A stretch of 64,000 nucleotides of DNA from an uncultured Gammaproteobacteria bacterium (GTDB lineage Bacteria; Patescibacteriota; Patescibacteriia; Magasanikbacterales; UBA922). The notes under the pieces are model-generated. The model saw only the letters and a list, made by a program, of their open reading frames with translations. It made no database searches and was not told the DNA's origin. Positions 3,500 to 61,600 of this stretch are shown here, piece after piece. The position numbers and the translations under genes were made by a program. Location of the stretch: contig CAZMHV010000002.1 in the NCBI GenBank assembly GCA_964566225.1, positions 81,934 to 145,933 of the forward strand, written 5' to 3'. How positions within the stretch are numbered: position 1 is the first letter of the stretch; each line of letters begins with the position of its first letter.

Positions 3500-4468
3500 A
3501 TGAAAAAAATAGTCACAATTGGTGGAGGTGGAGGACACAGCGCTATTGTCCAAGCTTTGAAAGATTTACCCATTGATCTGACTGTTTTGTGTAATACGGT
3601 TGATGATGGAGGTGGAAGTGGAATTTTGGTGCATCAATATGGTGTTCATTCACCTGGAGATTTTCGTCGTGTGGTGACAAGCCTGGCACAAAAAAATGCC
3701 GATGGGTTGAATTATAGATTTGACTCTGGCGTCAATCAAGGTCAGACCGTATTCAATTTGATGCTTGCAGGTCTTGAACTTTCAACTGGTTCTGTGCAGG
3801 GAGCAATTGATACCGTGCGTGATTGGTTTGGAATTGTGCCAATGATTGCGCCTATTACCGAGGGTGTTCCTGTACTCCATGCCAAAACAGTTTCCGGCAA
3901 AGAAATTGTCGGACAATCGAATGTCGTAAAGCATGTGTGGTCACAGCAAGATCCAATTGAACAAATTTTTCTTGAACCCAAAGAAATAAAATTGAGTGAT
4001 GTTGCTCGCACTGCTTTGCATGAAGCAGATTATATTGTTGTATGTATGGGAGATTTGTATAGTAGCATTGCACCTTTTTTTGCCATTGAAGAAGTCAAAC
4101 AAATGTGGTCGAAACTAAGTGCCAAGGTTATTTGGCTTCCAAACGTGGCAGTAACTCCAGGACATGTGCATTATAAAAGTACCTCCCGTGCTCTCAAGTT
4201 TTTGCAATCACTGTCTCCACTTTTTATTCCTGATATGGTTGTAACACATGCCGGTGAAATTTCTGCAGATATAAAAAATGCATTGCAACAAAAAGGGTAT
4301 GGAGTTTCTGAACAAGATATTGTTTCAACTGAACAAACACAGGTTGTTGCAGAACCTTTGATAGAGTCACAAGGTATTGTAAATTCACATGCGGACAACA
4401 TTGAACGCAGCCCAATTTTATATAATATTTCACTCCTGAAAAATATTTTTGAAAAAATAATTGTATGA
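3500..4468 (+). CDS. CofD/YvcK (UPF0052) family protein, gluconeogenesis factor-like
   Basis: KIVTIGGGGGHS glycine-rich N-terminus and DDGGGSG motif typical of the YvcK/CofD family. Confidence 0.6.
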   Translation: MKKIVTIGGGGGHSAIVQALKDLPIDLTVLCNTVDDGGGSGILVHQYGVHSPGDFRRVVTSLAQKNADGLNYRFDSGVNQGQTVFNLMLAGLELSTGSVQGAIDTVRDWFGIVPMIAPITEGVPVLHAKTVSGKEIVGQSNVVKHVWSQQDPIEQIFLEPKEIKLSDVARTALHEADYIVVCMGDLYSSIAPFFAIEEVKQMWSKLSAKVIWLPNVAVTPGHVHYKSTSRALKFLQSLSPLFIPDMVVTHAGEISADIKNALQQKGYGVSEQDIVSTEQTQVVAEPLIESQGIVNSHADNIERSPILYNISLLKNIFEKIIV

Positions 4469-4950
4469 TAAGACGAGCTACGTCACAAGATATTCAAGCT
4501 ATTGCTGACCTCGATAGACTCGGATTTAGTGGTAATCGTCCACCCGGTGTTGCCGAAAAGTGGATTGGCACAAATTTTGCACGAGGTGATCAGTACCAGT
4601 ACTTTGTGTTTGAAAAGGATGGTATGATAGCAGGGTTTATTGCCTGGGAAATAAAAAATGGTTTTGCCCGTGAAGTCCCAATTATTGAACTTGAAAAATT
4701 TGCGGTACATCCAGATTTTCGCGGGCAGGGCATTGGCACAGCGCTCATTGATGAAACTTTTCCTGTCATGAAAGAGTGGATTCACACTTTTTTACCAGAG
4801 GCCAAAGAAATGAGAGTCATTGTCTGGTGTTTGAAAGGAAATGACAAGGCTCTTGAACTGTATAAAAAGATCTGTGGTGATGGTGTGAAAGGTGAAAGAA
4901 GTATTTTTTCAAGTGATGAAGTACTGCTTCGTGGGACATATACTTTATAA
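4465..4950 (+). CDS. GNAT family N-acetyltransferase
   Basis: FAVHPDFRGQGIGTALI acetyl-CoA-binding motif; start overlaps upstream stop (ATGA). Confidence 0.7.
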   Translation: MIRRATSQDIQAIADLDRLGFSGNRPPGVAEKWIGTNFARGDQYQYFVFEKDGMIAGFIAWEIKNGFAREVPIIELEKFAVHPDFRGQGIGTALIDETFPVMKEWIHTFLPEAKEMRVIVWCLKGNDKALELYKKICGDGVKGERSIFSSDEVLLRGTYTL

Positions 4951-4984: not shown

Positions 4985-5875
4985 GTGTTTTTTATGGAAT
5001 TAAAAATTGTCGCAACGCATCCATCTTTAGATTACGAACTCATTGATTCTGGTGATGGAGAAAAACTTGAACGATACGGAAAATATACATTTCGTCGTCC
5101 AGACCCACAAGCACTGTGGGCAAAAAATGTATCAGCCAAACAATGGAATGAGGCACATTTTTCTTTTCGTCGAGATGGTAAAAAAGGTGATTGGATTGTA
5201 GCGTCTGGTGTAGAAGAACGTTGGCAAATTGCTTTTGGAACATTGAAATTTTGGATTCGTCCAACAGCTTTTAAACATACTGGATTATTTCCTGAACAGT
5301 TGCCAAATTGGGAATGGATGCAAAACGTTATTCGTGCCTCAGACAAAAAAGAAATAAAAGTATTAAATTTGTTTGGTTACACCGGTGGAGCTTCACTTGC
5401 GTGTGCTCAGGCAGGAGCCTCTGTGGTGCATGTGGATGGTTCCAAGGTTGCTATTGGTTGGGGTAAGGACAATGCCGCACTTTCTGGTCTTTCAGAAAAA
5501 CCAATTCGTTGGATACTCGATGATGCTCGTGAATTTGTGCGACGTGAAATTAAACGGGGCAATAAATATGATGGCATTATTCTTGATCCACCAGCTTTTG
5601 GTCATGGGCCAAATAAAGAATTGTGGAAAATTGAAGAACATCTCCCAGAGCTCTTAAAAATGTGTGGTGAAATTTTGTCCGATCAACCTTTGTTTTTTTT
5701 GATTAACGGATACGCCTCTGGATATTCTGCAATTGCTTATGAAAATAATCTTACACCAATGCTTACCAAATTTGGTGGTGATTTTGAAAAAGGTGAACTG
5801 ACTATTGAAGAATCACAAACAGGTAGACTCTTACCATGTGGAATTTTTGCACGATGGAGTAATTCAACTCTATAA
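4985..5875 (+). CDS. class I SAM-dependent methyltransferase (RlmI/Methyltrans_SAM-like, no PUA domain)
   Basis: LNLFGYTGG…VDGS… and DPPAFG motifs resemble the RlmI/RlmK-type rRNA MTase C-terminal domain. Confidence 0.55.
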   Translation: MFFMELKIVATHPSLDYELIDSGDGEKLERYGKYTFRRPDPQALWAKNVSAKQWNEAHFSFRRDGKKGDWIVASGVEERWQIAFGTLKFWIRPTAFKHTGLFPEQLPNWEWMQNVIRASDKKEIKVLNLFGYTGGASLACAQAGASVVHVDGSKVAIGWGKDNAALSGLSEKPIRWILDDAREFVRREIKRGNKYDGIILDPPAFGHGPNKELWKIEEHLPELLKMCGEILSDQPLFFLINGYASGYSAIAYENNLTPMLTKFGGDFEKGELTIEESQTGRLLPCGIFARWSNSTL

Positions 5876-5909: not shown

Positions 5910-6473
5910 ATGAAGAAATCTTTATTGGTTTTGGGTGTTGGAACAATTTTTTTGACAGGTTGTTCCTCGGTAACTCCTATAAAAGAAGTCTCAATGCCAG
6001 TTCAACCACCACAAGAACAAAAACGTATTGAACAAAAAGTAATAACGACAAATTCTATGGAAAATAATATTCAAAATATTGATGCACTCGTTGCTGCAAA
6101 AGAGTTGTATACATACGAGCTTCCTATTGCCAATAGTGTTATCACCAAACGTGAAGTTTCTGGATATCTTGATGCAGAAAAAACTGGAAAAATTTCTAAA
6201 GTTGAAATTGGTATGGGTGAAGTAAAAGATGAATACTATTTTGAAAAAGGTACTTTGGTTTTTCTCCGTACTACTACACAATTTACGGTAGATGGAAAAG
6301 CTGATACTCAAATTCGTGAGATGAGTTTTGAAAATGGAAAAATGGTAAAGCATATGAAAAATGCTCAGGTAGTTACCGATACAAGTAATAACGCATCACT
6401 CGAAGAACAAAGTATTACCGATGCTGCAACACTCTTTGAAGAATTTGAAATGAAAAAAGAATTGAATGGTTAA
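5910..6473 (+). CDS. hypothetical lipoprotein
   Basis: MKKSLLVLGVGTIFLTGCSS signal peptide plus lipobox. The track ORF starts at 5805 but overlaps the upstream gene; the internal ATG at 5910 is in frame. Confidence 0.6.
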   Translation: MKKSLLVLGVGTIFLTGCSSVTPIKEVSMPVQPPQEQKRIEQKVITTNSMENNIQNIDALVAAKELYTYELPIANSVITKREVSGYLDAEKTGKISKVEIGMGEVKDEYYFEKGTLVFLRTTTQFTVDGKADTQIREMSFENGKMVKHMKNAQVVTDTSNNASLEEQSITDAATLFEEFEMKKELNG

Positions 6474-7152
6474 TATGGATTTGCGAGTACTCTACGAAGA
6501 TAATCATATTATTGCTGTGTATAAACCCTCTGGCATGCTCGTGCAGGGGGATCATTCTGGCGACTCAACACTTATGGATGAGGTGAAGTATTATCTCAAA
6601 CAAAAGTATGACAAGCCAGGCAATGTATTTCTCGGCATGGTACACCGCCTTGATCGTCCGGTCAGTGGTATTGTTTTGTTTGCCAAGACGAGCAAGGGGG
6701 CATCGAGACTCTCAGAACAGTTTCGCACACACAGCATTCAAAAAATCTATCATGCACTGGTTTTGGGTACTCCAAAATTGCCCACAGGAACCCTCATAAA
6801 TTACCTCAAAAAGGATGCTGACAAAAATTTTGTACGGGTGTATGATACTCCTACTCCAGATGCGCTCCGGGCTGAGCTGGATTATGAAGTGGTTTCGTCT
6901 CATGGTGGTAGATCGATCTTGAAAGTTGTTCTCAAAACTGGTCGTCCTCACCAAATTCGTTCGCAGCTTGCCCATATTGGGTGTCCTATTGTGGGTGACG
7001 TAAAATATGGTGCTCCAGAAGAACGGGAAGTAACATCACATGGTGAAAAGCATAGTAGTATTTCACTGTGTGCTACCTCGGTTATGTTTAAATTGGCTAC
7101 CCAAGAAGAATATAAATGTATTGAAATTCCCATTCCATCGGAGTGGGGCTAA
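6466..7152 (+). CDS. RluA-family pseudouridine synthase (no S4 domain)
   Basis: HRLDRPVSGIVLFAKT catalytic Asp motif. Confidence 0.8.
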   Translation: MVNMDLRVLYEDNHIIAVYKPSGMLVQGDHSGDSTLMDEVKYYLKQKYDKPGNVFLGMVHRLDRPVSGIVLFAKTSKGASRLSEQFRTHSIQKIYHALVLGTPKLPTGTLINYLKKDADKNFVRVYDTPTPDALRAELDYEVVSSHGGRSILKVVLKTGRPHQIRSQLAHIGCPIVGDVKYGAPEEREVTSHGEKHSSISLCATSVMFKLATQEEYKCIEIPIPSEWG

Positions 7153-7167
7153 CAATTATAGGAGAGT

Positions 7168-7641
7168 ATGTATGTTTCCTCAAAGTTGCGTTTGATGGAA
7201 GAGAATGGTTTTCGTTCTTTAATCTCAGACGGAATTTTTGAATCAAATGAAATAATTTTGAATTTTGAACGAAATTTTGTTGCTGTTCCAGATACTGTGA
7301 CCTTACAAATTGGTGAGAATATGCACCAATTGAGTAGAGATAAAAATGCTTTTGAAAATTTTGTGAATCATAGTTGTGAGCCTACGGCATATATTGATTT
7401 TCAGAATCTTTCTTTGAAAGCCTTCCGAAAAATTGAAATCGGTGAGGTGATAACTTATAATTATTTTACGACAGATTATCATTCAAAAGACATTTTTAAC
7501 TGCAACTGTAGGTCAAAAAAATGTAAAAAAGTTATTAATGGTTTTATGAATCTATCGTATCAAGAAATGCAAGCACTCGAACCATATCTTTCTCCTTTTT
7601 TGAAACAAAAAATGAAAGAGTTGGTATATGCACGAGTATAA
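7168..7641 (+). CDS. SET-domain protein (putative protein-lysine methyltransferase)
   Basis: NHSCEPT signature, an EVITYNY-type Tyr motif and a post-SET Cys cluster CNCRSKKC. Confidence 0.7.
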   Translation: MYVSSKLRLMEENGFRSLISDGIFESNEIILNFERNFVAVPDTVTLQIGENMHQLSRDKNAFENFVNHSCEPTAYIDFQNLSLKAFRKIEIGEVITYNYFTTDYHSKDIFNCNCRSKKCKKVINGFMNLSYQEMQALEPYLSPFLKQKMKELVYARV

Positions 7642-7671: not shown

Positions 7672-8862
7672 ATGAACTTGTACGAATTTGAAGGAAAAAA
7701 TATTTTTGAAAAATATGGAATAAAAATTCCACGTGGTGTGGTGGTGCGCCGCGATGATAATTTTATTGCCAAATATAGTGAACTTGGACTCACTGATGTT
7801 GTTGTGAAAGCACAAGTTCTTTCTGGAAAGCGTGGCAAGGGCGGGGGAATTAAGTTTGCTTCATCAGACGAAGAAGTACAAAAGGCCTGTGCTGAAATTT
7901 TTGCCATGGAAATTCGAGGGCAGTATGTGGCGGCTATTCGTATTGAAGAAAAATTATCAATTGCGGAAGAACACTATCTTTCTATTACGTACGATACAAA
8001 TCGTAAACAGCCAGTTTTGATTTACAGTCGTGATGGGGGAATGGATATTGAAGATGTCCCTGAAGAAAAAATTGTAAAACAAAATTTGGATATTCAAAAA
8101 GAAATGATTGAAAGTGAAATTCCTTTTGCACAAAATTTGTGGAATTGTTTTTTGAAAGAAGATACACGGGTGGTGGAAATTAATCCACTCGTGAAAACAA
8201 CTTCGGGTGAGTGGATCGCCGCAGATGCCAAAATTGCGATCGATGATGATGCATTTTACAGGCATGAAGACTGGAAAGCTTTGGAGCCTCGTACTATGAT
8301 GGGACGACTCCCAACTGATCGTGAAAATGATGCCAAAAAAATTGATGAAGGGGAAGCGTATTATCGTGGAACCGCAGGAAAATATATTGAAATGGATGGC
8401 AATATCGCTATTCTCTTTTCTGGTGGTGGTGCGAGTATTGCCAATATGGATGCCCTCATGAAAGCCGGTCTTACCCCTGCCAATTACACAGAATATTCAG
8501 GAAATCCTCCTCGTGAAAAAGTCCATGCACTTGCCAAGGTGGTTCTGAGTAAACCAGGTCTTCAGGGCCTGTGGATTGCCGGAGGTGTGGCAAATTTTAC
8601 CAATGTATCAGAAACCTTTCATGGAATTGTTGATGCACTTGATGAATTGAAACCAACCTATCCAATTGTGGTGCGACGTGCAGGACCATTTGAAAAAGAG
8701 GGAATGGAATTGATGAAAGAATGTGCAAAAAGAAATAATTTACACATGAAATTTTTTGGGAAAGAAACGTCAATGAGTGATACTGCTGAAATTTTGGCAA
8801 AAGCAGTAAAAGAAAGTATTCCTTTTGAACAATCCGATGAATGGCCTATTTATTGGCCATAA
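7672..8862 (+). CDS. sucC: succinyl-CoA synthetase beta-subunit-like ATP-grasp protein (alternatively AclB / citryl-CoA synthetase large subunit)
   Basis: MNLYEFEGKNIFEKYGI N-terminus; ATP-grasp plus CoA-ligase domain; 396 aa. Confidence 0.75.
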   Translation: MNLYEFEGKNIFEKYGIKIPRGVVVRRDDNFIAKYSELGLTDVVVKAQVLSGKRGKGGGIKFASSDEEVQKACAEIFAMEIRGQYVAAIRIEEKLSIAEEHYLSITYDTNRKQPVLIYSRDGGMDIEDVPEEKIVKQNLDIQKEMIESEIPFAQNLWNCFLKEDTRVVEINPLVKTTSGEWIAADAKIAIDDDAFYRHEDWKALEPRTMMGRLPTDRENDAKKIDEGEAYYRGTAGKYIEMDGNIAILFSGGGASIANMDALMKAGLTPANYTEYSGNPPREKVHALAKVVLSKPGLQGLWIAGGVANFTNVSETFHGIVDALDELKPTYPIVVRRAGPFEKEGMELMKECAKRNNLHMKFFGKETSMSDTAEILAKAVKESIPFEQSDEWPIYWP

Positions 8863-8880
8863 TTGTAATAAATTTGTTGT

Positions 8881-9396
8881 ATGAAAAAATATTTTCTTAT
8901 TCTTTTGTTTTTTGTGGGAGTGACACTGAGTATATTTTTTGGTGTTCGTTTTCAAAAAGAAAATGCTGTTACACGCGTAGAAAATCAAGAACTCTTTGAA
9001 CAAATTTTGATGAATCCTTTTGCCGGAGGAGTAAGTGATATTCAAGGATTTAAAAACCAAAAAGGAAAGTCTGATACATATTTTAAATTTCGTGTTACGA
9101 ATGAACAAAAAGAAGTATTGTTGAAGCTGCATGAATATAAAAAAATCGACTGTACCAATGAAGCCGTGTTGTCAAAGTTGCTTGCACCAGAAAAAACAAA
9201 AAACATTGTAGAAGGATCAACTTCTTTTTGGAATGTAAGTGAAGTTGAAAATAAAGTTTGTTATGCAACTTTTTTGTTCACTGCATCTGGAATTGAAGGA
9301 AGGTTGTATTCAAATAATTTGAGACAACGCGCACAAAGTGAGATGGTAATTGACGAAAAAAATAACGTGGTGTATTTTCATGAATCAGGAATATAA
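8881..9396 (+). CDS. hypothetical membrane-anchored protein
   Basis: N-terminal TM helix; no recognisable motif; sits between the sucC-like and sucD-like genes. Confidence 0.4.
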   Translation: MKKYFLILLFFVGVTLSIFFGVRFQKENAVTRVENQELFEQILMNPFAGGVSDIQGFKNQKGKSDTYFKFRVTNEQKEVLLKLHEYKKIDCTNEAVLSKLLAPEKTKNIVEGSTSFWNVSEVENKVCYATFLFTASGIEGRLYSNNLRQRAQSEMVIDEKNNVVYFHESGI

Positions 9397-9405
9397 AAAT
9401 TTTGT

Positions 9406-10302
9406 ATGTCTATTTTGCTCCAACCCAATACACAAGTACTTATCCAGGGGATGACTGGTAAAGAAGGTCAAAAAGCAGCGAAAGCTATGCTGGATTATGG
9501 CACACAAGTAGTATGTGGTGTCACTCCCAATAAAGGTGGACAAGAAGTCGAAGGAAGGCCTATTTTTAACTCTGTGGGTGAGGCAAAAGCTCAATTTCCA
9601 GAATTATCTGTGTCTGCCGTATATGTGCCTCCCTTTGCTGCCAAGGCTGCAATTTTGGAAGCCATTGAAAATGATATAAAACTTATCAATATTATTGTTG
9701 AGCGGATTCCTATCCAAGATACGGCGTACTGTTTGGCGGCGGCACGTGAACGTGGTGTACAAATTTTAGGACCAAGTTCACTTGGGTTTATGATTCCGGG
9801 GGTAGGCCGCATTGGTGTCGTCGGTGGACCACTTGAATTGGCCAATCAAGTATTTCAATCTGGGAGCATTGGTGTCATTTCTCGCTCTGGTGGCATGACC
9901 AATGAAATTTCTTGGCAAATTCGCAAAGCAGGCATGGGCCAAAGTGCTGCCGTGCATGTGGGAGGGGACTTACTCATGGGAACCACTTATGCAGATTTAC
10001 TTCGTTTATTTGAAAAAGATGATGCCACGAAAGGTGTTGTGCTTTTTGGTGAACATGGGGGAAGTTATGAATTTGAAATTGTAGAAGCGATTCAAAAGAA
10101 AGAATATACGAAGCCACTTGCGATTTATATTGGTGGCAAGTTTGCCAACTCTTTGCCCGAGGGTATGAATATTGGTCATGCTGGAGCGATTGTGGAGCGG
10201 GGCAAGGGTGCTGCAGAAAAAGAGAAGGCGCTCAGTGATGTTGGTGTTATGATTGCAGAGCGATATGAAGATTTAGTTACTTTAATTCAACCCTTTGCTT
10301 AA
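9406..10302 (+). CDS. sucD: succinyl-CoA synthetase alpha-subunit-like CoA-binding protein
   Basis: CoA-binding Rossmann N-terminus (LIQGMTGKEGQ) and a His-loop region. Confidence 0.75.
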   Translation: MSILLQPNTQVLIQGMTGKEGQKAAKAMLDYGTQVVCGVTPNKGGQEVEGRPIFNSVGEAKAQFPELSVSAVYVPPFAAKAAILEAIENDIKLINIIVERIPIQDTAYCLAAARERGVQILGPSSLGFMIPGVGRIGVVGGPLELANQVFQSGSIGVISRSGGMTNEISWQIRKAGMGQSAAVHVGGDLLMGTTYADLLRLFEKDDATKGVVLFGEHGGSYEFEIVEAIQKKEYTKPLAIYIGGKFANSLPEGMNIGHAGAIVERGKGAAEKEKALSDVGVMIAERYEDLVTLIQPFA

Positions 10303-11041
10303 TTGTATGCATTTTAAAACCGCAATCACTCACATCACTGATGATGGAAAGGAAATTATTCGTGGAAATAATTTTGATGAGCTCATTGAACACAAAACAT
10401 TTTCAGAAGTAATTTTTTTATTGCTGATGGGAAAACTACCGAATGAAAAAGAATTGAACATGATAAATGCATTTTTGGTTGCAGCCATTGATCATGGTCC
10501 TGGCACTGCTTCTGCGCTCACGGCTCGCATATCTGCATCGAGTAAAAATAGCATGCATACTTCACTCGCTGCAGGCCTTCTCGGGTTGGGTGAACGTCAT
10601 GGACTTGCCATCGAAGGAGCCATGAAATTTTTTCAAGAAAATATTGGTGCAGCTGATCTTGCATCACTCCTCAAACAAATGAAAGAACAAAAAAAGTATG
10701 CACCTGGATTTGGACACAGAATTTTATCGGTTGATAATCGAGCAAATACATTACTCGATATTGCCAAGAAAAATAATTTTTTTGGAAAACACTGTGAGTT
10801 TGCTCTGCAGGTACGTGACGAACTCAACAAAATTTCTTCAAAACCACTTCCCATAAATATTGATGGGGCTATGGGGGCGATTTTGTGCGACATGGGTGTG
10901 GATTCACGTTTGTCCAAGGGGATCTTTATGATTTCTCGTGTGCCAGGCTTGGTGGCACAAATTTACGAAGAAATGTGTAGTGACGAGGGACTCAGACGAC
11001 TCGAAAGTGATGAGATTGAATATATCGGTAAAGGACTGTAA
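10295..11041 (+). CDS. citrate synthase-like domain protein (citryl-CoA lyase / ATP-citrate-lyase C-terminal-domain-like)
   Basis: GFGHRIL (the GFGHRVY counterpart), LGERHG, and NIDGAMGAIL…SRVPGLVAQ match the catalytic C-terminal half of citrate synthase. Confidence 0.65.
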   Translation: MLNCMHFKTAITHITDDGKEIIRGNNFDELIEHKTFSEVIFLLLMGKLPNEKELNMINAFLVAAIDHGPGTASALTARISASSKNSMHTSLAAGLLGLGERHGLAIEGAMKFFQENIGAADLASLLKQMKEQKKYAPGFGHRILSVDNRANTLLDIAKKNNFFGKHCEFALQVRDELNKISSKPLPINIDGAMGAILCDMGVDSRLSKGIFMISRVPGLVAQIYEEMCSDEGLRRLESDEIEYIGKGL

Positions 11042-14851: not shown

Positions 14852-14882
14852 CAAAAAATCCCCAGTGAAGGGGATTTTTTTA
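14852..14882. terminator. rho-independent terminator (bidirectional)
   Basis: aaaaaatcccc-agtgaa-ggggattttttt hairpin between convergent genes. Confidence 0.8.
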
Positions 14883-14898: not shown

Positions 14899-15036
14899 TT
14901 ATTTTCTTTTAGCAGCCTTGCGAGCGGCCTTGCGCTTTGGAGCAGCCTTGCGAGCTGGTCTCTTAGCAGCAGCTTTGCGCTTTGGAGCAGCCTTGCGAGC
15001 TGGTCTTTTAGCAGCAGCTTTTCTTTTTGCTGGCAT
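14899..15036 (-). CDS. histone H1-like Lys/Ala-rich DNA-binding protein
   Basis: MPAKRKAAAKRPARKAAPKRKAAAKRPARKAAPKRKAARKAAKRK. The track ORF extends to 15102; the internal ATG at 15036 gives the basic 45-aa protein. Confidence 0.55.
   Translation of the reverse strand: MPAKRKAAAKRPARKAAPKRKAAAKRPARKAAPKRKAARKAAKRK
14929..15018. repeat. 2 x 45-bp tandem direct repeat inside the histone-like gene
   Basis: gcgctttggagcagccttgcgagctggtct occurs twice, 45 bp apart; encodes the AAKRPARKAAPKRKA repeats. Confidence 0.8.
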
Positions 15037-16631: not shown

Positions 16632-16736
16632 ATAGAAGGCTTGCTTCTTCAAAACAGAAGAATTATACCAGAAGCCCCTTGATTTTTCAAGGCTTTTGCG
16701 CTATACTTGGCTTTATACTCAAATATAAGCCATTCC

Positions 16737-17708
16737 ATGAAAAATATTGACCAAGAACTGATAATTTCACCCGAAGACGTGGGTAAGCGCATTGATGCGC
16801 TCCTGGCGCAGATTTTGGGTATCAGCCGTGTTCAAACCGCTATACTTATTGAAAAAGCACGTGTGAAAATGGGTGATCGTGTCATTCGTAAATCATCAGA
16901 AAGACTCAAAGCTGGGCAAAATCTCGTTTTACTCGCTCCAGAACAAGACGAAGTTGAAACCGCCCACATTGTCCAAAAGGTGGTTTTCCCAGAAATTGAA
17001 ATTCTCAAGGAAACCGATGACTATATTGTCTTCAATAAACCCTCTGGCCTTTTGGTACATGAAACCGAAGCACATGAACCGGTAACTCTTGCGGCCTGGC
17101 TTCTTCATCACTATCCACAAATGCAGGGGATTGGTGAAAATCCAACTCGTCCTGGTATTGTGCATCGTCTTGATAAAGACGCTTCAGGTGTGCTTGTGGT
17201 AGCCAAAACTCAGGCTATGTTTGATGCTCTCAAGGCACAGTTTAAAGAACGTACTATTGAAAAAGAATATCGTGTCTTGGTACAAGGTGTGGTAGAAAAA
17301 GATGAAGGGAAAATTGACTTCGCCATTGATCGTGGAAGCGATGGTAGAATGGTTGCTCGACCACGTACTGAAAAGGTCTCTTTGAAAAATGTTGCCAAAC
17401 TTCAAGAAGGCAAAGAAGCCCTGACTGAATTTACCGTATTGCAGCGATTTATCAATTATACAATGCTGGCTGTTCGCATTCATACTGGCCGTACTCACCA
17501 AATTCGTGTGCACATGTTTGCCTACAATCATCCAGTGGTAGGGGACACTTTATATTTTCAAAAAAAGCTTGAAAAATTTAACAAAGGCATTGGTCGGCTT
17601 TTTCTGCATTCTTACCGAATCGGCTTTACGAATCTGACAGGAGAAAAAGTCGAAGTTATTGCACCACTCCCAGAGAAACTTGAAGAATTTTTGAAAAAAA
17701 TTAAGTAA
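16737..17708 (+). CDS. RluD/RluC-type pseudouridine synthase with N-terminal S4 domain
   Basis: S4-like N-terminus and HRLDKDASGVLVVAKT catalytic motif. Confidence 0.8.
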   Translation: MKNIDQELIISPEDVGKRIDALLAQILGISRVQTAILIEKARVKMGDRVIRKSSERLKAGQNLVLLAPEQDEVETAHIVQKVVFPEIEILKETDDYIVFNKPSGLLVHETEAHEPVTLAAWLLHHYPQMQGIGENPTRPGIVHRLDKDASGVLVVAKTQAMFDALKAQFKERTIEKEYRVLVQGVVEKDEGKIDFAIDRGSDGRMVARPRTEKVSLKNVAKLQEGKEALTEFTVLQRFINYTMLAVRIHTGRTHQIRVHMFAYNHPVVGDTLYFQKKLEKFNKGIGRLFLHSYRIGFTNLTGEKVEVIAPLPEKLEEFLKKIK

Positions 17709-35527: not shown

Positions 35528-35701
35528 AGTAAAAAAATTGCTAGAAATAGCAATTTTTTTTATTTTGTAGACTTATTTGACTTGACAGAAGCATAAAGCT
35601 GTGATATTTTCTGTTATTGCTTTGGTTTGTACCTATGCATGACCAATGGTGGCCGTGCATAGTGCGAACGAAACGCGATAACTGCTGAGTGAGGTAATCA
35701 G

Positions 35702-36415
35702 ATGCTTCAGGAATTTTTGAAGAATGTCGAACTGTTGTTCATGGGGCGTGTCCCCATGGTCCTGGTCTACTACCTGTGCCCCCTGCAGGCCTATGACGCC
35801 AAGAAGGCCGAATGGCTCTGCTCTGAGCGGGGCTACAAGTCGGACTTCGGCCCGAACGCCAAGCTCATCACGGTGCTCCAGGGTTTCAACGTCTTCCTGT
35901 ACGTCACCAATCCGGGACGTCTCATCACGCAGCTGCGCGGGTTCCCCCTCGTGGCCGCGTCGGATCTCAACAAGCAGGGGCGCCCCGTGAGCATGGTGAA
36001 GTTTGGCCAGCACATCGAGGTCGGCGTTCGCCCGTTGATTCCTGCATCCGCAGCAGAGATCAGCGCCGACGTCGAGGCTGCCTTCGACTCCACCCATGAG
36101 CCGCCCCATGAGTTGTCTCTCGATGAACTCTTTGACGTCGACGATGGTGGTGATCCTCCGTCCTTGGCAGACCACCCGATCGACACCACCCTCGGTGGGA
36201 TGGGGGAGCTCAGTGACATCACCAGTGTGCGACGCACCCTGGGTCAGGACTTCTCCGGGGGCGACGAAATCTCGGCCTTCGACAATCCCCCGGGCACTCA
36301 GCCCGTCATCGACTTGTCGGCGATCGGGGTGTCCCACGAGGATCCCGCCGCTTCGGTGGAGGTCGAGCTCGAGTCTCTGGTCGGAGAGAATGGGGGTTCC
36401 CGTCCAGGGGACTGA
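35702..36415 (+). CDS. hypothetical protein (high-GC island gene 1)
   Basis: Plus-frame GC3 ~80% identifies this as the coding frame, not the overlapping 35633..36484 minus ORF; acidic disordered C-terminus. Confidence 0.5.
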   Translation: MLQEFLKNVELLFMGRVPMVLVYYLCPLQAYDAKKAEWLCSERGYKSDFGPNAKLITVLQGFNVFLYVTNPGRLITQLRGFPLVAASDLNKQGRPVSMVKFGQHIEVGVRPLIPASAAEISADVEAAFDSTHEPPHELSLDELFDVDDGGDPPSLADHPIDTTLGGMGELSDITSVRRTLGQDFSGGDEISAFDNPPGTQPVIDLSAIGVSHEDPAASVEVELESLVGENGGSRPGD

Positions 36416-36483
36416 CCTGTTCACGACCTCTCCGAGGTCACCAGTGAGCCGCGCCTCAATAAGAGAGGTCGCACGCACGCTCA

Positions 36484-36547
36484 CCCAATGCCGTCCGCAC
36501 TGTGTATTGTTACTAAGAATATACAGTAAGGAGGTTTCGGCATTGGG
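36484..36547. repeat. nested inverted repeat (palindromic element)
   Basis: cccaatgccg…cggcattggg, a 10-bp perfect inverted repeat enclosing actgtgtat…atatacagt. Confidence 0.6.
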
Positions 36548-36552
36548 TGAAA

Positions 36553-36589
36553 ACAGGGAATGATACTTGTGTCATTCCCTGTTTTTTTA
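36553..36589 (+). terminator. rho-independent terminator
   Basis: acagggaatga-tacttgtg-tcattccctgt-ttttttt. Confidence 0.8.
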
Positions 36590-36675
36590 TCTTGACAAAG
36601 CAAAATTTTTATGATATACACACAACGCATCCAAATTCTGGATGAGTCTTTTTACCACTGGTCATATCAAAGGCG

Positions 36676-38139
36676 GTGATTCGCATGAACTCGTTCGCTC
36701 GTGTTGTGTCGCGGATTTCTTTTGTCGTCGGCATTCTCTATCTCGGCTATCTGGCCGTGGATGAGTGGTTCGTCCCGAGCTCGAAAAAGGCGGAGGTCAT
36801 CAAGGACCTGAAACTTGATCAGGAAGACCTCTGTTTTGCCTTGGCAAAGGCCGCTGGCAAAACCCTCAATTCGAACAAGGGAACTTCGATCTCTGTGAGC
36901 CGGTTTGGTGGGGTTCAGACGGACTCCCTGGTCTTTTTGGCCAAGAAGTGGACTGCTTTTTCGGCGGCTGACTGGGTTGCTTGGGACTATGTTCCGGGCA
37001 AGGGGTGCGCCATCAGCTATGTGATGGGGAAGGTGGGTACCCCACTTGAACCTGAAGACGTGGTCATTCGTATTGAAGGACCTCTCGATACTGTGTGGGA
37101 CGAGTTCGCCTCGGTCTCAGGCCATTCCGCCCTTCCTACCTTGGCCAATTCTCAGTTCATGCTCTTGGCAACTGGTGGGGAATGGACCCCTGATGTGTTT
37201 GCTCAGGCGGCACGCCAGAACTACACTGGTGTGATCGAGGCACTTTCCCTGGTTGAGAATGATGCCATCTTCAATCGTCGGGTCACGTTGTACAACAACG
37301 CGCTCCAAGTGATTGATGAATGGGTGCATGCCTGGCGTTCGTATCAGATGAACCATCGAGCGCAACAGGTGGGGATTCTCTTGCTGGCGTTGCTTGTCGA
37401 ATTCATCTGGTTCTACTTCCGTGTTCGGGCGTATTCGCAGGGCATTGTCTGGCTGGTGGTCCACTTTTTTTCGGGCTGTGAAGCCTCAAGCAAGAATCAA
37501 GTGGTCAAGCTGTCCAAGAAAGATGTCCCTGCCCCTGCTGTGCAGGAGGTTCTTCCTTCTGGCCCCAAGCCCTTGACTCTGTCCGATTTGCTCTCGCGGG
37601 CATCTTCGGTCGGAGGAGAAGTGCTTCGCGGTCTCGTTGCTGCATCGTTGGGATCGTCTCCTACGGCAGACTCCCTTCGTGTGGCCAACGACAAAGTCTC
37701 GGCGGTTCAGGGTCATGGCGATTTGCTCACCTCGGCTCGTCGTTTCGGCGAGGATACCGTTGCCGAGTGCATGGACTATCTGTTTGAGGGCCAACTGGGC
37801 TCTGCACAGCAGCTCATCCGTCAGAAAGAGTACCAGCGCATCAGCGGGGATCTTCGGACGGCTTCGTTCCAGCTCGGTGTCGAGGCTCAGGTGGATGAAC
37901 TTCTCTATCAAGGATCGATTGAGGAGGCTCGCAAGGTCATTGAGTCAGCCCGAGCTCGAATCGGGTTTCAGGCTCAAATCCAGAACCTTCGAGCCTGGGT
38001 GAAAGACCACTCTCGCGATCTGGATCCTCATCTGCTCATTCGAGTGGCGTCGTTCGATCCGAAGGCTCCCGGGGCTCACAAAGAGTTGAATCGTCTCGAG
38101 CGAGAGGTTCAGGCCGTCAAGACCCGATTGGGTCTCTGA
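36676..38139 (+). CDS. hypothetical membrane protein (high-GC island gene 2)
   Basis: 487 aa; N-terminal TM and a central double TM; GC-rich codon usage (tcg/ctc/gcc). Confidence 0.5.
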   Translation: MIRMNSFARVVSRISFVVGILYLGYLAVDEWFVPSSKKAEVIKDLKLDQEDLCFALAKAAGKTLNSNKGTSISVSRFGGVQTDSLVFLAKKWTAFSAADWVAWDYVPGKGCAISYVMGKVGTPLEPEDVVIRIEGPLDTVWDEFASVSGHSALPTLANSQFMLLATGGEWTPDVFAQAARQNYTGVIEALSLVENDAIFNRRVTLYNNALQVIDEWVHAWRSYQMNHRAQQVGILLLALLVEFIWFYFRVRAYSQGIVWLVVHFFSGCEASSKNQVVKLSKKDVPAPAVQEVLPSGPKPLTLSDLLSRASSVGGEVLRGLVAASLGSSPTADSLRVANDKVSAVQGHGDLLTSARRFGEDTVAECMDYLFEGQLGSAQQLIRQKEYQRISGDLRTASFQLGVEAQVDELLYQGSIEEARKVIESARARIGFQAQIQNLRAWVKDHSRDLDPHLLIRVASFDPKAPGAHKELNRLEREVQAVKTRLGL

Positions 38140-38207
38140 AGTCTCGCACTGTTTTCAACTCCAACCATTTTTAACAACAACAAACAAGGAGGGAAAGGGA
38201 GGGGAAA

Positions 38208-38240
38208 CAAAAACAGTCCAGAGTATGGACTGTTTTTGTT
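38208..38240. terminator. bidirectional hairpin terminator
   Basis: acagtcc-agagtat-ggactgt flanked by an A-run on one side and a T-run on the other; serves the island gene (+) and rnpB (-). Confidence 0.7.
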
Positions 38241-38660
38241 TGTCTTTTCTTGCTATAAGCCGAATTTTGTGTCCCTTGCGGGCGACGATCATTTCTCTTG
38301 ATCACACATTGCTGGGTGATTCTAGCGAGCGAACTTTTCGCATTTCTCCGCTTCGGTGCGCTGGCTAACAAGTGTTCGCCAAGCGTAACGAAGTGAAGTC
38401 GCGCTGCTCTTTCTCCAAGTAGGGCTTACCACGATTGCACATTTCTGTGCAACGAGTAGAGTAGCCTTGCGACTTCTCTACACTTTTCACCTTTCACCAC
38501 CTTGCGGTGGCTAGTATTGTCTCTGTGGTGCTATCCCGCTCACAAACTTCACAGTTTGGAGGGTGGGCGTTACCCACTACTTTTTTTCCCGGCTTGCACC
38601 AGGGGAGTTCGGACTTTCCTCATTCTGGCAAGCCAGAAAGCGATCATCTACAAGAAAAGA
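38241..38660 (-). ncRNA. rnpB: RNase P RNA (bacterial type A-like)
   Basis: Minus strand shows GAGGAAAGUCCGAACUCC (P4 5' strand), GGGUAACGCCC, ACAGAGACAA, GGUGAAAGGUGAAAAG and ACAAAAUUCGGCUUAU (P4 3' strand, compensatory with the 5' strand). The ends form P1: UCUUUUCUUG / CAAGAAAAGA. Confidence 0.8.
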
Positions 38661-54894: not shown

Positions 54895-55614
54895 ATGGAT
54901 GGAATGGATACGAACAATAAATTGACTCGTGAACAAAAAGTGGGCGTCACGCTACTTTTTATTTTTACCTTACTCACCGTTGGTCTTGCTTTTTTGCAAA
55001 TGCGTAACACTTTGTTTACGCCTTTTGTGTTAAACCCAACTGATGTTGTGGATACCCAAAAATCACTTCAAGATTTGCAGGTTGACCTCCAAAAAATCGA
55101 TACAGACAAAGACGGACTCAATGACTTTGAAGAACAAGAATACTATGCTACCAGTCGATACCTGCCAGATACGGACTCTGATGGTGTTTCTGATAAAGTC
55201 GAAATTGATGCGGGTACCAATCCGTTATGTGTTGAAGGAAAATTTTGTGAATTTGGCCAAGCCAATCCTCAAGCAGTCTCTACTACTCAAGCCATTACAG
55301 CGCTTCCTGTAGGGAGTACAGCCCTTTCACCAGTTGCTGGGATTGCCCAAGATCAAGAAACTGCAGCAGCTCAGTTGCAGGCACTCATCAATGATCCAGA
55401 ACAAATTCGTCAAATGCTTCGTCAAACTGGTTCTATCCCCGAAGAACAGCTCAAAAAACTTGATAATGCAACACTTATTAGTTTGTTGAAGCAAATCATC
55501 TCTCAGCAAGGTCAGCCTCAAACCCCACCTGTCCCCGATGCTTCTGGAGTCTCTACTTCTACCAAAAATTCTGTTACAACAACTTCAACTTCTCAATTTG
55601 AAACAGAACCCTAA
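54895..55614 (+). CDS. hypothetical membrane-anchored protein with Asp-rich Ca-binding-like repeats
   Basis: N-terminal TM; DTDKDGLNDFEE…DTDSDGVSDKVE (thrombospondin-type-3/EF-like Asp motifs); Gln/Pro-rich C-terminus. Confidence 0.45.
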   Translation: MDGMDTNNKLTREQKVGVTLLFIFTLLTVGLAFLQMRNTLFTPFVLNPTDVVDTQKSLQDLQVDLQKIDTDKDGLNDFEEQEYYATSRYLPDTDSDGVSDKVEIDAGTNPLCVEGKFCEFGQANPQAVSTTQAITALPVGSTALSPVAGIAQDQETAAAQLQALINDPEQIRQMLRQTGSIPEEQLKKLDNATLISLLKQIISQQGQPQTPPVPDASGVSTSTKNSVTTTSTSQFETEP

Positions 55615-55622
55615 TTTTTTCT

Positions 55623-58600
55623 ATGCTAGAGTTTTTTTCACCCAAAAGGAAATTTGTCAAAGTCACTCTGTTTGTCGTTGGCATGCTTCAAGTTTTTAGT
55701 TTTCTTTTGGTCGCTCCGGTTTTTGCACAAGCGGGTCAGCCTGTATCTGACTATACGACAGAGTTAAATACCTATGTTACAGCCAATGTTTTGCTTGCTG
55801 ATAAGGCCAAAAAAGAAGTTGACCAAGGACTTTTGGCTACTGGAGTTGCCTCTATCATCCATGCTTTTTCCTATTTCATGGACAAAATCGCCTATGACAC
55901 TGCTCAGTACGTAGCCAATGGTGGCAAAGGCCAAAGTGCTTTGGTATTTAGAAAGGGTTTCAAGAGCTATATTGAAGACACGGCTCTTGATGCTGCCGGA
56001 GATTTTATTGAAAATTTTAGTACCAATGCACTCGGTATTAACCTCTGTCAAATTCCAGATCCACACCTGGCTATATTTTTGACACTTGGTTTCAAGAGTA
56101 TTTATGGCAAAGGTGGTCCTCAATCAAGTTGTTCTTGGCAACAATTTCGTAATAACTGGAGTCGAGAAGCGTTTGAACAACGCTATGGCCCAGGTGGAAG
56201 TCGTTTTTTGGCAGAAACTTTTAGTGCAAATTTAAAAGTAAGTAATACTGACTTCGGTGTAGGGTTATCTGCTATTGCCAAGCTTGACAAAGTTACGGCT
56301 CAAGCCAAAACCGCTGCTGCTGATGACCGCAAAGAAGGACAGGGGTACAAAGCGGTAACGGCTATGATTACGGGAAATATTTTGACTCCATCACAGGTTG
56401 TCCAAAAAGAAACTGATGTTGCTACCAATCATTACAAAGTTGAAGCCAATAACCAGCAGCTGGCGGGTATTTTGGCCAGTGGTGCCAATCAAGTTTTTTG
56501 GCATGCAGGTTCTGTATTTTTGAATACACTGACTTCAGAGATGATCAATAAATTGCTCACCCAAGGAATGTTTCCTGATATTGGAGACGATGGGAGTGCG
56601 GTAGAGGGTGGCTTTTATAACAGTCCACAAAATCGTTTGAATGGTGCAGCAAATCCCTATGCTCAGTTGCTTACGGCTCGACCTTCTACTCAAGTCAATA
56701 ATTATAATATCATTTCAGAGTTTGCTACCTGTCCAGACGCTCCAGGTATGAACAATTGTGTCATCGATACCGACTTCCAAAGAGCGCTCGACATTGGTAA
56801 CAGTGATAAACCACTTACTATCCAAGAGGCACTTGATAAAGGTTTGCTCCACGGCAATTGGCCTCTTATTTCTCCTAAACGTGAAGCTGACAATGCCAGT
56901 CCAAATCATGATTGTTACCAGGGAAAATATTGCTATTCCAATATCCAAAAACTTCGTAAAGTAAATATCTTGCCACTTGGTTTTGAAATTGCCGCTCTTC
57001 GTTCTGATCCAGATCAACCTTGGACACTTGAAACGGTCGTGAGAAACTTTGAAACCTGTTATCGTGTCAATGGACAAGGAAATCCTGATCCAAATGGTAC
57101 TATTATTCGAGAAAATGCTGCGTTTCCATTTTGTCATCTTATTAATCCAAACTGGATTATTCGTGTACCAGCGCTCCAATGTATGGGCAAGGTGATTACC
57201 GATTCACTGCTTAGTCCCGATTCTGCGCAGCGTCGTGAAGAATGTCTTGATGTCAAAACATGTATTAACGAAGGTGAAAATGGAAGTTGTGGTGGTACTT
57301 ACGCGTACTGTACTCAAGAAAAAAATATTTGGAGAATTCCAGGACAATCTTGTCCTGCTGAGTATAATACCTGTACCACGTACATGAACAATTCTACCCG
57401 CCAGGCAGCTTCATATTTGGCGCGTACGGTTGACTACGGTGAATGTAGTATTGATACAGTAGGGTGTCGTGCGTATGCTATCCAAAAATACGGTGCGGGT
57501 AACTGGCTTGGTTCCGGTGATGTTGATGATAGTGACAACCACAAAACATTTCGTGCTCTTCATGACACCACAGATATTATATACTTTGACAATGCTATAA
57601 AAGCACAAAGTACGGTTTGTCGTCCTGGCAATAATGGATGTACATTATTTTATGGTGCAGTCCAAGATACCACTACCGGTCAGTACCAAAAAACATCAAA
57701 CAACAAATTTATTGAAGACAAAAATGTTCAAATTCATCTCAAAAAAGCTCCCGATTATTTGAAATGTTATGATAGTAATCAGGCAAGTCCAGATATTGAT
57801 TGGCCAACTACTTTGGCTGACGTAGAAACCAATGTTTCTCAAAGCGAACAGTGTAATGCTTTTGCTTCAGTATGTTTAGAAAGTGAAATTGGTTGTGAGG
57901 CTTATACTCCGCTTGATGCCAAACAAGTGGCTCTTGCGGGTGTACCTCAAATTCCAGGTATGATTGGGGCACAAAATGTATGTAGTAGTGATTGTGTGGG
58001 ATATGCTACTTTCAAACAAGAAGCTGATAAATTTTCCAATGAAAAATTTCCATTGTATTTTATTCCTCAAAATGGCAAGAGTTGTGATGCCAAGTACACT
58101 GGCTGTTCAGAATTTACCAATATTGATACACGTGCTCAAGGTGGAGAAAAGAAAGAGTATTATACAGATCTCAAATACTGTGAAAAACCTTTGGCAGACC
58201 AAAGTAATATAAAAACATTCTATACTTGGGAAGGCAGTATCAACCAAGGTCTTTCTCTCAAAACTGTCAAAATATTACCAGTGAGTGCTGAAGAAAATAC
58301 ATATTTAAATGCAGTTCTTGCAGACGAAGATGCCAAATACATTGATCAATTTCCTGTTGGTTCACCTGCGTATGGAGATGATAGTAAAATTGCACTTATG
58401 GGTGCGGTTACCCAATGTAACAAAGAAAACTATTTGATTCGTCAAAACAATCCATACGATGTTGATGCTGCGGTACCAGATTGTAAAGCATACTATGACG
58501 ACGCTGGAAATATTTTTTACAGAGTCTCAGGAGATGACTCCAAATCTCTCAATAAATTAGTAACTATTTCACCGGCATGTCATCCTTTGCGCAAAACCAA

Positions 58601-61600
58601 TCCTGAATTTTTTGCAGACATTGCACTCCAGGGCAATAGTGATGCATGTTTACGCAAGGGAGGTAACTATGACCCTGCCCAAGGAACCTGTCAGCGTTGT
58701 ATGAATGGTGGACGTTTTGAAAACAACAGCTGTGTCTATCAAACTATTTCTGCTCCAGGACAATCAACTTCTTGTCCAGCTGTGGCCAATGGATGCCGTT
58801 CATATACTGGAAGTACTGCCAACAACGTAAATGAAATATTCAATGACGACTTTGAGGGAGCTACTGACGAAGAAGTAGCGCAAATGGTTGCTCCATGGAA
58901 ACCTGCTCGAAATGTTCGTATCTCTGTTGAGGCTGCACAGGCTGGTGCGCACTCACTTGAAGTGAGCGGTCCTGCCAATCAAGTAGTGAATCGTCAAATA
59001 GAACCAGGATCATTCAAGAGTGATTCTTGGTATGAGGTAACATTCTGGGCCAAAGGTTCTGGCCGAAATGTTTCAGTAGCACTTTCTCAAACCGAAAACA
59101 ATGCTCGCGTGGTGAAAGCAGATTTTTCTCTTGACCCACTCACTGGTGAGCATGTGGCTGCCTCTATTGATCAAGATTGGCATGCATATCACCTTGGACC
59201 AGTTCAATTTATTGGCGCCACCAGTACTCCGCTCATGCTTGATTTTGTACTCGAGGGGAACAACAATCTGCCTGTGTATATTGACCATGTTCGTTTTACC
59301 CAGGTTCGTGACCATATTCCTCTTATCAAAGATTCATGGAAAACTTCTGAGGGGTATGATGCTCCACTTTCTTGTGATTCAGATCCTCTCGATGCACTCC
59401 CTGGTGAAAGACTTGGTTGTTCTGCCTACAAAGATAGTAATAACAAAATTCGTTTTGCCACAGGTTTTGAAAAACTCTGTCGTGAAAAAGCGGTGGGTTG
59501 TCAACCACTCTGGGATACCTTCAATACTGTCGAAGGTGATGATGCTGATAAAAAATTGGTTTACAACGTTTTGTGTCAGGTAAATCCTCAGGCGGCAAAC
59601 ATGGCCAAAGTTGAAAATGGTAAATGTACCCTGTATCGTGCTGGAAATCTCAACAAACCAGCAGGGGAGTGTGCTATCAAAAATCAGTTTGAACCATACT
59701 GTTACGTTTCCAAAGTTGTCTTGGAAGCAGATGAAAATTTTAGTATCAGTTTTGGTAATAACGCACTCACCCGATCAACCGTCATTGTTCCTGCAGACAC
59801 GGCCAGTAGTACTCCAATATTTTTGGCCAACCGCAAAGATTTTCGTTGTAGTGAAACAGAACGTGGTTGTATGGCTGTAGGACTTGAAAATCAGCTTATT
59901 TCAACTGCAACCGTTTCTACTTCTTATAAATATACTGACATGATGGTCAAAAATGACCCTGCCTTGTACGATAAAACGTTGTGTCGAAGTGATTTGGTTG
60001 GTTGTGACGAATTTAAAAACAATAACAATGTAACCTACTTCAAAGATCCAAAAATTATTGGTAACAAAACCTGTGTGTACAAAGAAAAAGGCAACACAGA
60101 TACATTTGGTTGGTTTCAGGACGGTGTTGGTCGTTGTACGGCCAACTCAGACCGTTTGTGTCGTACCAATGATGACTGTGACCGAGGAGATACTTGTAAC
60201 TCTGCAACTTTGAATACGGTTGCCTGCTATGAAGATTACCAACGCGAAGGTGGCATGTATGATTTGTGGAGTAATAATACCCAGCAGTACGATGGTTTTG
60301 TAGGTTCTTGTCCAAATAACTATAACCTGTGTACAGAACTTATTGATCCAGCCGATACTTCATCGGTGCATCCTGCTGGTCAAGCATACTATGTTATTTT
60401 CAATAATCAGGTGACTTCACAGGTTTCAAAATGTGATGGCAAAGTAAGTTTGAGTGAAGGTTGTGTTCTCTTCAACAAAACCGATCAACCAAATAAATTG
60501 TACGATAGTGTCGCTACCTATACCAATTCAGAAAATGCAAATCCCAAATATTCGCCAGTAGCACCTGTTTCAACTGGTCGAAGTCTCAATACCAACTTAA
60601 TCTTGAAAGTGAACCGTGACCGTATGTGTAGTCGATGGCTTGATTGTGCTACCAGTATTCGTCAAACCGATGCTTCGGGCAAGCCAGTTGACCTCTGTTA
60701 TGCATTTCGTGAATGTGAACAACAAGAAGGTGGCGTCTGTACCAAGTGGGTAGACAACTTTGCCAATAATAGTACGGTACAACAAGCTGCTACTCGTATT
60801 ACCTATGGCAACTATATCAAGCGTGGTACTTCATGGTATGACAATGAATTTACGGGGTATTCACTGTACAACAAATTCCGTATTGACAACATGATCTATG
60901 TTTCATTTGATAACGACGTTTTGAAATCAACCTATAAACTCTTAGAAGGGGATGTAGAAAAAATGGTGGACAGACAGTATCTTGCCTATGAAATGGATGG
61001 TCAATTTTTTACTGGTGAAAGTCGTGGCAAAGGGTGTTTCCCAGATCCTGCAAATCCAAATGTCAGTACAGACATGAAAATTTGTGGATATGACAATGGT
61101 GGTCGTTGTTACAAAAATAAATGTATATATCCTATCACTGGTGTGTTTCCAGCAGGTATTGACCCTGTCAGTGCTGTAGACGCAACTCGTCGCAGTAGTA
61201 TGATCACACTGTTGAATGCACTTACCTCCAACAGTTGTAAAGGTCACCCAGAAATTACCGGACCATTTGAAATTCAGACCGTGCTTGATAAAGACGCAAA
61301 TCCTGTTAAAAAATACCTGTTCGATGGGGATGGTTTCAATGCAGGCTTATTCCGTTTAGAAGTACGAAACCCTCGCAGTGGATTTTCCAATGCCAATTAC
61401 TGTCAAGACGAAGAGTGTTCCTGTGGTTACAAAAAAATATATTACAATGGAAATTCTCTTCCAGACTATGTTGACTTACAAAAACCTGTAAATAGTCGTG
61501 GTGTTTGTATTAGTGGAGATATTCCTGTTCGAAATGATGATGGAACTGTGAATAATCAAAGAACGCAAAGTGCTGTTGGTTCATACTGTCAAAATGACAA

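Follow-up and report, generated by a model that had tools for sequence, protein, structure and literature searches.

The window analyzed here, a stretch of 64,000 nucleotides, carries at positions 7168 to 7641 of the forward strand a gene for a SET-domain methyltransferase, an open reading frame (ORF) that begins with ATG and codes for 157 amino acids followed by a stop codon. The ATG start is supported because the homologues likewise begin with M[YF]VS, and at a short spacing upstream of it the sequence AGGAGAG (7160 to 7166, same strand, read directly) resembles a Shine-Dalgarno site. The gene stands in a long array of codirectional genes, 15 nt after the gene for an RluA-type pseudouridine synthase (6466 to 7152, +) and 30 nt before a gene for an ATP-grasp/citrate-binding protein. 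The terminator scan found nothing terminator-like that would separate the SET gene from the RluA-like gene before it or from the genes that follow, and around the SET gene the counts of both the promoter and terminator scans were near the shuffled expectation, those of promoter-like sites in the scanned region being somewhat higher (27 versus a shuffled mean of 19.2, standard deviation 4.4). One near-consensus sigma-70-like promoter match (TTGAAA-17-TATAAT, 11/12) falls inside the SET coding region, at 7433 to 7461 (+). This site may be a chance occurrence, or transcription of the citrate-lyase-like genes downstream could start from it.

The DNA is bacterial, with a class A RNase P RNA, three tRNAs, a GC content of ca. 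40% and housekeeping genes that include those for GlmS, UvrA, GroEL, S2, EF-Ts, GAPDH, PGK, a release factor and YidC. Since all the named relatives of its GroEL at 79 to 85% identity belong to Candidatus Magasanikbacteria or Patescibacteria, the host is a member of Candidatus Magasanikbacteria, i.e., an ultra-small bacterium of the Candidate Phyla Radiation (CPR). Two other regions of the window stand out. A GC-rich island at ca. 35600 to 38200 (55.5% GC in the 36- to 38-kb bin versus ca. 40% elsewhere), adjoining the RNase P RNA gene (38240 to 38659, −), is possibly horizontally acquired DNA; its ORFs at 35633 to 36484 (−) and 36676 to 38139 (+) gave no match in Pfam, nor did the second one in NCBIfam. 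From 55602 to 64000 (+), a single stop-free frame of at least 2,799 codons continues past the 3′ end of the window, and this part had seemed poor in ORFs because the ORF listing leaves out frames that run off the window end. Its product, judging by the hydrophobic N-terminal segment of the translated frame, is probably a giant surface or secreted protein.

Upstream of the SET gene there are genes for a GNAT protein (4465 to 4950) and an RlmI-like SAM methyltransferase (4985 to 5875). The RluA-like gene next to it is one of two of this family located less than 10 kb apart, the other being at 16707 to 17708 (+). Downstream, from 7672 to 11041 (+), there is a gene set similar to ATP-citrate lyase or citryl-CoA synthetase-lyase, with ATP-grasp_2 and Citrate_bind domains, CoA_binding and Ligase_CoA domains, and a Citrate_synt C-terminal domain; a 171-aa ORF with no assigned family is interleaved among these genes. 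Such a set is unexpected in a CPR bacterium, with its reduced central metabolism.

Motifs, profile and fold of the SET domain

The preliminary description had recognized a bacterial SET-domain protein by three strings, all of which are present in the 157-aa ORF: NHSCEPT (residues 67 to 73), EVITYNY (93 to 99) and CNCRSKKC (112 to 119). It had also proposed a profile search and a structure prediction as checks, and both agree with it. The Pfam SET profile (PF00856), present in all the family members, matched residues 56 to 99 only, with an E value of 1.3e-6 and 29.2 bits (gathering score, 22.4); the protein matched nothing in NCBIfam. When the single sequence was searched against the PDB, the best matches were the SET domains of MLL1 (E value, 2.5e-8), and the profile built from a 55-sequence family alignment (A2, used for AlphaFold2 as well) matched 139 solved SET chains, with a best E value of 9e-26. 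The AlphaFold2 model has a mean pLDDT of 96 and a pTM of 0.89, and its best structural matches are solved SET domains. It consists of an all-beta core followed by two C-terminal helices (residues 131 to 140 and 143 to 156), and full-length superpositions at 2.2 to 2.6 Å imply that the SET pseudoknot is formed in the modeled protein. With the profile match, the confident model and a bacterial host (class A RNase P RNA, GroEL), the original assignment stands: this is a genuine, very small SET-domain protein of the methyltransferase class, for which we infer the corresponding activity.

The N-terminal beta-strands of the domain (residues 7 to 32; 7186 to 7263, +) were assigned by DSSP to residues 7 to 12, 15 to 20 and 29 to 32. 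Here, the position of the SAM-binding motif I (GxG) is occupied by F15-R16-S17, both in the window protein and in its three nearest relatives (P0002 to P0004), whereas the family has G15 in 142 and G17 in 109 of 224 domains. Active SET enzymes do not all carry GxG, and its absence therefore lowers confidence in the activity but not in the membership of the SET class. The change of both glycines, to Phe and Ser, would fit a catalytically impaired SET domain with a degenerated motif I, kept as a binding or structural module. However, motif I of SET enzymes touches SAM mainly via backbone atoms, the corresponding residues of the solved enzyme BurB (see below) are Arg42 and Ala44, and the model is confident at this point (pLDDT of 96 to 97). 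Moreover, the alignment of the close relatives (A1) shows no variation in the Cys cluster or at N64, F65, N67, H68, S69, C70, P72, N98 and Y99, and because the other functional residues are kept in the same subclade, we consider the loss of activity quite improbable.

The SET-I insert (residues 45 to 62; 7300 to 7353, +) is very short and carries a T-L-Q-I motif in common with BurB, T45-L-Q-I48 aligning to T73-L-Q-I76 of that enzyme; the family conserves L46, Q47 and I48. NHSCEPT (7366 to 7386, +) contains the Asn and His of the SAM pocket and Cys70, the predicted fourth zinc ligand. H68 and C70 are found in all 224 strong domains, and the last residue of the NHxCxPN motif is Thr73 instead of Asn, as in 13 of the 224 relatives. 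EVITYNY (7444 to 7464, +), with Tyr97 at the Phe/Tyr-switch position and the conserved active-site Tyr99, has as its aligned counterparts ELTYDY in MLL1 and LTMDY in BurB. The post-SET CxCx4C cluster (C112, C114 and C119; 7501 to 7524, +) aligns to CNCGAKKC of MLL1, and its three cysteines are nearly universal (224, 223 and 221 of 224 domains, respectively); together with H68, C70 and Y99 they are invariant in A2. As these positions and that of C70 align with the zinc clusters of MLL1 and BurB, the four cysteines would probably bind one zinc ion, in a post-SET cluster of the kind known from MLL, SET2, SUV39 and BurB. The C-terminal tail (residues 125 to 157; 7540 to 7638, +) is family specific, with GF..L (G125 in 197, F126 in 179 and L129 in 203 of 224 domains) followed by two helices with LSPFL, in which S142-P143-[FY]144-L145 is conserved. 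This tail is absent from MLL1, and only its first part is present in BurB.

Family distribution and gene neighborhood

Members of the family are ca. 145 to 175 aa long and share the SET core, a post-SET cluster of four Cys and the tail (G125-F126-x-x-L129 ... L141-S-P-[FY]-L145). Ten close relatives were recovered by a word-indexed search and 116 by a profile search. When 1.84 billion representatives were scanned exhaustively with HMMER, the matches numbered 89 at an E value of ≤1e-30, 2,438 at ≤1e-10 and 9,917 at ≤1e-3, the weaker tiers certainly taking in other SET families; with ca. 89 and ca. 2,400 cluster representatives in the first two tiers, the family is not rare. In species-representative genomes, the relatives belonged to Patescibacteria (with Paceibacterota and Saccharibacteria among them) and to DPANN archaea (Woesearchaeota, Nanoarchaeia and Iainarchaeum), with further ones in single MAGs labeled Bdellovibrionales, Gammaproteobacteria and Latescibacterota. 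This patchy distribution suggests older horizontal transfer. NCBI names some members “SET domain-containing protein” or “SET domain-containing protein-lysine N-methyltransferase,” and a search of one literature collection for SET domains in Patescibacteria, CPR and DPANN turned up no paper treating SET domains in CPR or DPANN or describing the family, which is widespread and uncharacterized and of which the window protein is a new member.

At the locus of a 66%-identical homologue (L017), the gene order CofD, GNAT, RlmI-like methyltransferase, RluA-like, SET and citrate-lyase-like genes is kept, and the SET gene is therefore vertically inherited in the close Magasanikbacteria lineage. The first part of the citrate-lyase-like set (the ATP-grasp/citrate-binding gene and the 171-aa ORF) is also present there, up to the end of the contig. 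With this synteny and the housekeeping surroundings, a recent mobile or eukaryote-derived origin is unlikely. An all-versus-all BLAST comparison of the ORFs located less than 6 kb from the SET gene in 15 loci grouped only the SET genes themselves and gave no conserved neighbor gene. Nor did Pfam reveal any common theme among 20 immediate neighbors of the related SET genes. Those neighbors code for ASCH, HhH-GPD glycosylase, DAP/Orn decarboxylase, class I LysRS, Glu dehydrogenase, DedA, GIY-YIG, RNHCP, Pth, cyclophilin, signal peptidase, PolX and histidine phosphatase proteins. We had considered a theme of translation-apparatus modification, given the GNAT, RlmI-like and RluA-like genes upstream, and dropped it because these are found only in the close Magasanikbacteria lineage; the SET protein is treated here as a stand-alone enzyme without a dedicated partner. 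In an uncultured “Bdellovibrionales” MAG (L003, 6778 to 10192), the SET homologue lies between genes for a DAP/ornithine-type PLP decarboxylase and a class I lysyl-tRNA synthetase, a lysine-themed neighborhood seen at this one locus only.

The CPR and DPANN lineages in which the family is concentrated are thought to live attached to hosts, as would be expected if the protein were an effector delivered by an episymbiotic CPR cell to modify the proteins of its host, and secreted bacterial SET effectors are known (NUE, RomA/LegAS4 and BtSET; PMC3980110). However, the window protein has the first SET beta-strand right at its start and neither a signal peptide nor an extra targeting domain, and its gene has housekeeping surroundings with no secretion genes adjacent. 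In addition, the hosts of CPR bacteria are, to our knowledge, prokaryotes without histones, and we regard a role as an effector as highly improbable.

Proposed reaction and comparison with BurB

The best explanation of the sequence, to which we would give a probability of about 0.6, is a mini-SET enzyme for which protein-lysine methylation is the likelier activity. It would be a minimal stand-alone class V (SET-fold) S-adenosylmethionine (SAM)-dependent methyltransferase of Candidatus Magasanikbacteria, made up of the SET beta-core, an extremely short SET-I, a zinc-binding post-SET CxCx4C (plus Cys70) and the two-helix tail of the family. SAM would be held against Asn67/His68 and the post-SET region, and the nucleophile would meet the methyl group beside Tyr99, with Phe65, Tyr97 and Phe110 forming the putative aromatic pocket. 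In the likeliest reaction, one or several proteins of the organism itself would be N-methylated at a lysine side chain. Lysine is favored as the acceptor because the active-site residues of lysine methyltransferases are retained and the genes of a Bur-type pathway are absent.

The motifs are near-identical to those of the MLL/SET1 enzymes (Trithorax, KMT2), which are H3K4 lysine methyltransferases: FVNHSCEPT in the window protein versus FINHSCEPN, VITYNY versus ELTYDY and, for a further motif, CNCGAKKCRKFLN in MLL1 versus CNCRSKKCKKVIN in the window protein. Both also have Tyr at the Phe/Tyr-switch position. The architecture differs, since the SET-I of MLL is ca. 20 residues longer and the protein ends right after the Cys cluster; MLL enzymes are multidomain proteins of >3,000 aa that require the WRAD partners, whereas here we have a stand-alone protein of 157 aa with a helical tail. 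Another minimal SET core that stands alone and has a short SET-I is vSET of Paramecium bursaria chlorella virus 1 (PDB 1N3J), an H3K27 methyltransferase of 119 aa.

The SET fold alone does not make a lysine methyltransferase, given that the closest solved relative is BurB, both in the profile comparison (93 bits versus 79 bits for MLL1) and in the Foldseek one (TM score, 0.71). BurB from Burkholderia thailandensis (PDB 9L4T/9L4V) is a SET enzyme of 172 aa that S-methylates free methionine, bound through main-chain atoms, in the biosynthesis of DMSP and malleicyprol, and its gene is clustered with BurI/D/E (PMC12542666). Its Tyr124 is not strictly catalytic, as the Y124F variant retains >60% of the activity (PMC12542666). 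What the mini-SET family and BurB have in common is architectural: a very short SET-I carrying T-L-Q-I, the post-SET cluster and the beginning of the tail. The window protein could be a small-molecule methyltransferase of the BurB kind, acting on a free amino acid or another metabolite, e.g., converting methionine into S-methylmethionine. Against this, the identity between the two proteins is only 24%, the LSPFL helix is missing in BurB, and the residues around the active site differ. Where BurB has Leu, Met and Leu, the family has Asn67 (198 of 224 domains), an aromatic residue (F/Y/W) at position 97 (206/224) and Phe or Tyr at position 65 (181/224), and MLL1 has Asn, Tyr and Phe, respectively; Tyr99 is common to BurB, MLL1 and 222 of the 224 domains. 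S-G-L in BurB replaces E-N-F of residues 63 to 65, and none of the BurB-type substitutions (LHSC, M-D-Y or S-G-L) is present in the window protein, which like its family follows the pattern NHSC, Y/F-N/D-Y and E/D-N/D-F/Y. In other words, the features typical of lysine methyltransferases, Asn67 of NHSC and an aromatic residue (Tyr97) two positions before the catalytic Tyr, are both there. Residue 44, aligned to the channel Tyr of MLL1, is Val, and the family shows a mixture at this position (Y in 70, H in 27, K in 22, F in 19 and T in 19 of 224).

The gene context also differs from that of BurB, as the window SET gene is not accompanied by partners of the BurI/D/E type. No gene for an SMM decarboxylase, aminotransferase or aldehyde dehydrogenase was found beside the SET gene in the window and in 14 related loci, the DAP/Orn-type decarboxylase upstream in L003 being the sole exception to the missing Bur-type partners. 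Production of DMSP or malleicyprol is not known from CPR or DPANN organisms. A small-molecule substrate seems rather unlikely on these grounds, although the sequence cannot by itself settle the choice between this reaction and that on lysine.

Candidate substrate and significance

Bacteria and archaea were already known in the late 1990s to have SET-domain proteins, several of which are now characterized. The small SET enzymes encoded by prokaryotes, as the one described here, include cpnSET/NUE of Chlamydia, Go1-SET of Methanosarcina, BaSET of Bacillus and RomA/LegAS4 of Legionella. Two of them, cpnSET and Go1-SET, methylate basic DNA-binding proteins of their own organisms, Hc1 and MC1-alpha, respectively, and BaSET targets H1 (PMC3980110). 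For the window protein, any choice of substrate is speculative, and this includes the one pointed out by the preliminary description, a Lys/Ala-repeat protein similar to histone H1. Its ORF does exist in the same window (14899 to 15036, −), coding for 45 aa with K/A/R/P repeats (13 K, 9 R, 17 A and 5 P) and a pI of ca. 12, and only analogy makes its product a candidate substrate. Directly 3′ of it there is a hairpin with a T-run resembling an intrinsic terminator (14853 to 14880, −; read directly as aaaaaatcccc-ttcac-tgggga-tttttt), which supports a real gene, and the ORF is real-looking. An obvious Shine-Dalgarno sequence is absent, Pfam gave no match, the Hc1 and Hc2 families included, and the ORF has probably never been called as a gene, since its exact sequence is missing from a collection of 15 billion proteins.

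As a special case of lysine methylation, the mini-SET enzyme might specifically methylate this 45-aa protein, in a modification of the nucleoid similar to that of Hc1 by the chlamydial cpnSET. The presence in the same genome of a lysine-rich ORF with its own terminator, and the three precedents mentioned above, are in favor. However, 7.3 kb and ca. ten genes separate the two, which are on opposite strands, and the H1-like ORF belongs to no Pfam family, those of Hc1 and Hc2 among them. A scan for K/R- and A/P-rich ORFs in the window and the related loci L001 to L016 found only the one in the window; in the related loci, K/A-rich ORFs were absent up to ca. 8 kb from the SET gene. The SET enzyme is not acidic either (pI of 6.8; 4.6 to 9.9 in the family), so its charge is uninformative. 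We consider this pairing improbable, and the H1-like protein, by analogy with the known systems, would be a reasonable first substrate candidate and not a finding.

One more bacterial SET protein is no surprise, and NCBI already names relatives of this one; by itself, the mini-SET family opens no long-standing question. What goes beyond the first reading is the CPR host, the existence of a subfamily with a helical tail across CPR and DPANN, and the kinship to BurB combined with an active site of the lysine-methyltransferase type. A coherent subfamily of ca. 150 aa (SET core, zinc post-SET cluster and LSPFL helical tail) common to CPR bacteria and DPANN archaea is mildly useful, as a compact, well-predicted and easily expressed target for studying the role of SET enzymes in minimal genomes and the point in SET evolution at which the switch from lysine to small molecules arose. 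A broader and, we think, unlikely scenario is that mini-SETs throughout CPR and DPANN, with their BurB-like architecture and lysine-methyltransferase-type site, methylate the basic nucleoid protein(s) of their own cells, such as the 45-aa H1-like one, and have been exchanged horizontally between both radiations. If this were true, ultra-small bacteria and archaea would have, in nucleoid-protein methylation, a “chromatin mark” system of a rudimentary kind. If, alternatively, the whole family acted like BurB on a small molecule, SET-fold metabolite methyltransferases would be far commoner than known. The mini-SET unit is also found repeated: proteins from a metagenome library (P0121 to P0128), of 600 to 1,480 aa, contain 5 to 8 copies in tandem, a full copy scoring ca. 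90 to 110 bits, and these polyproteins suggest a protist origin.
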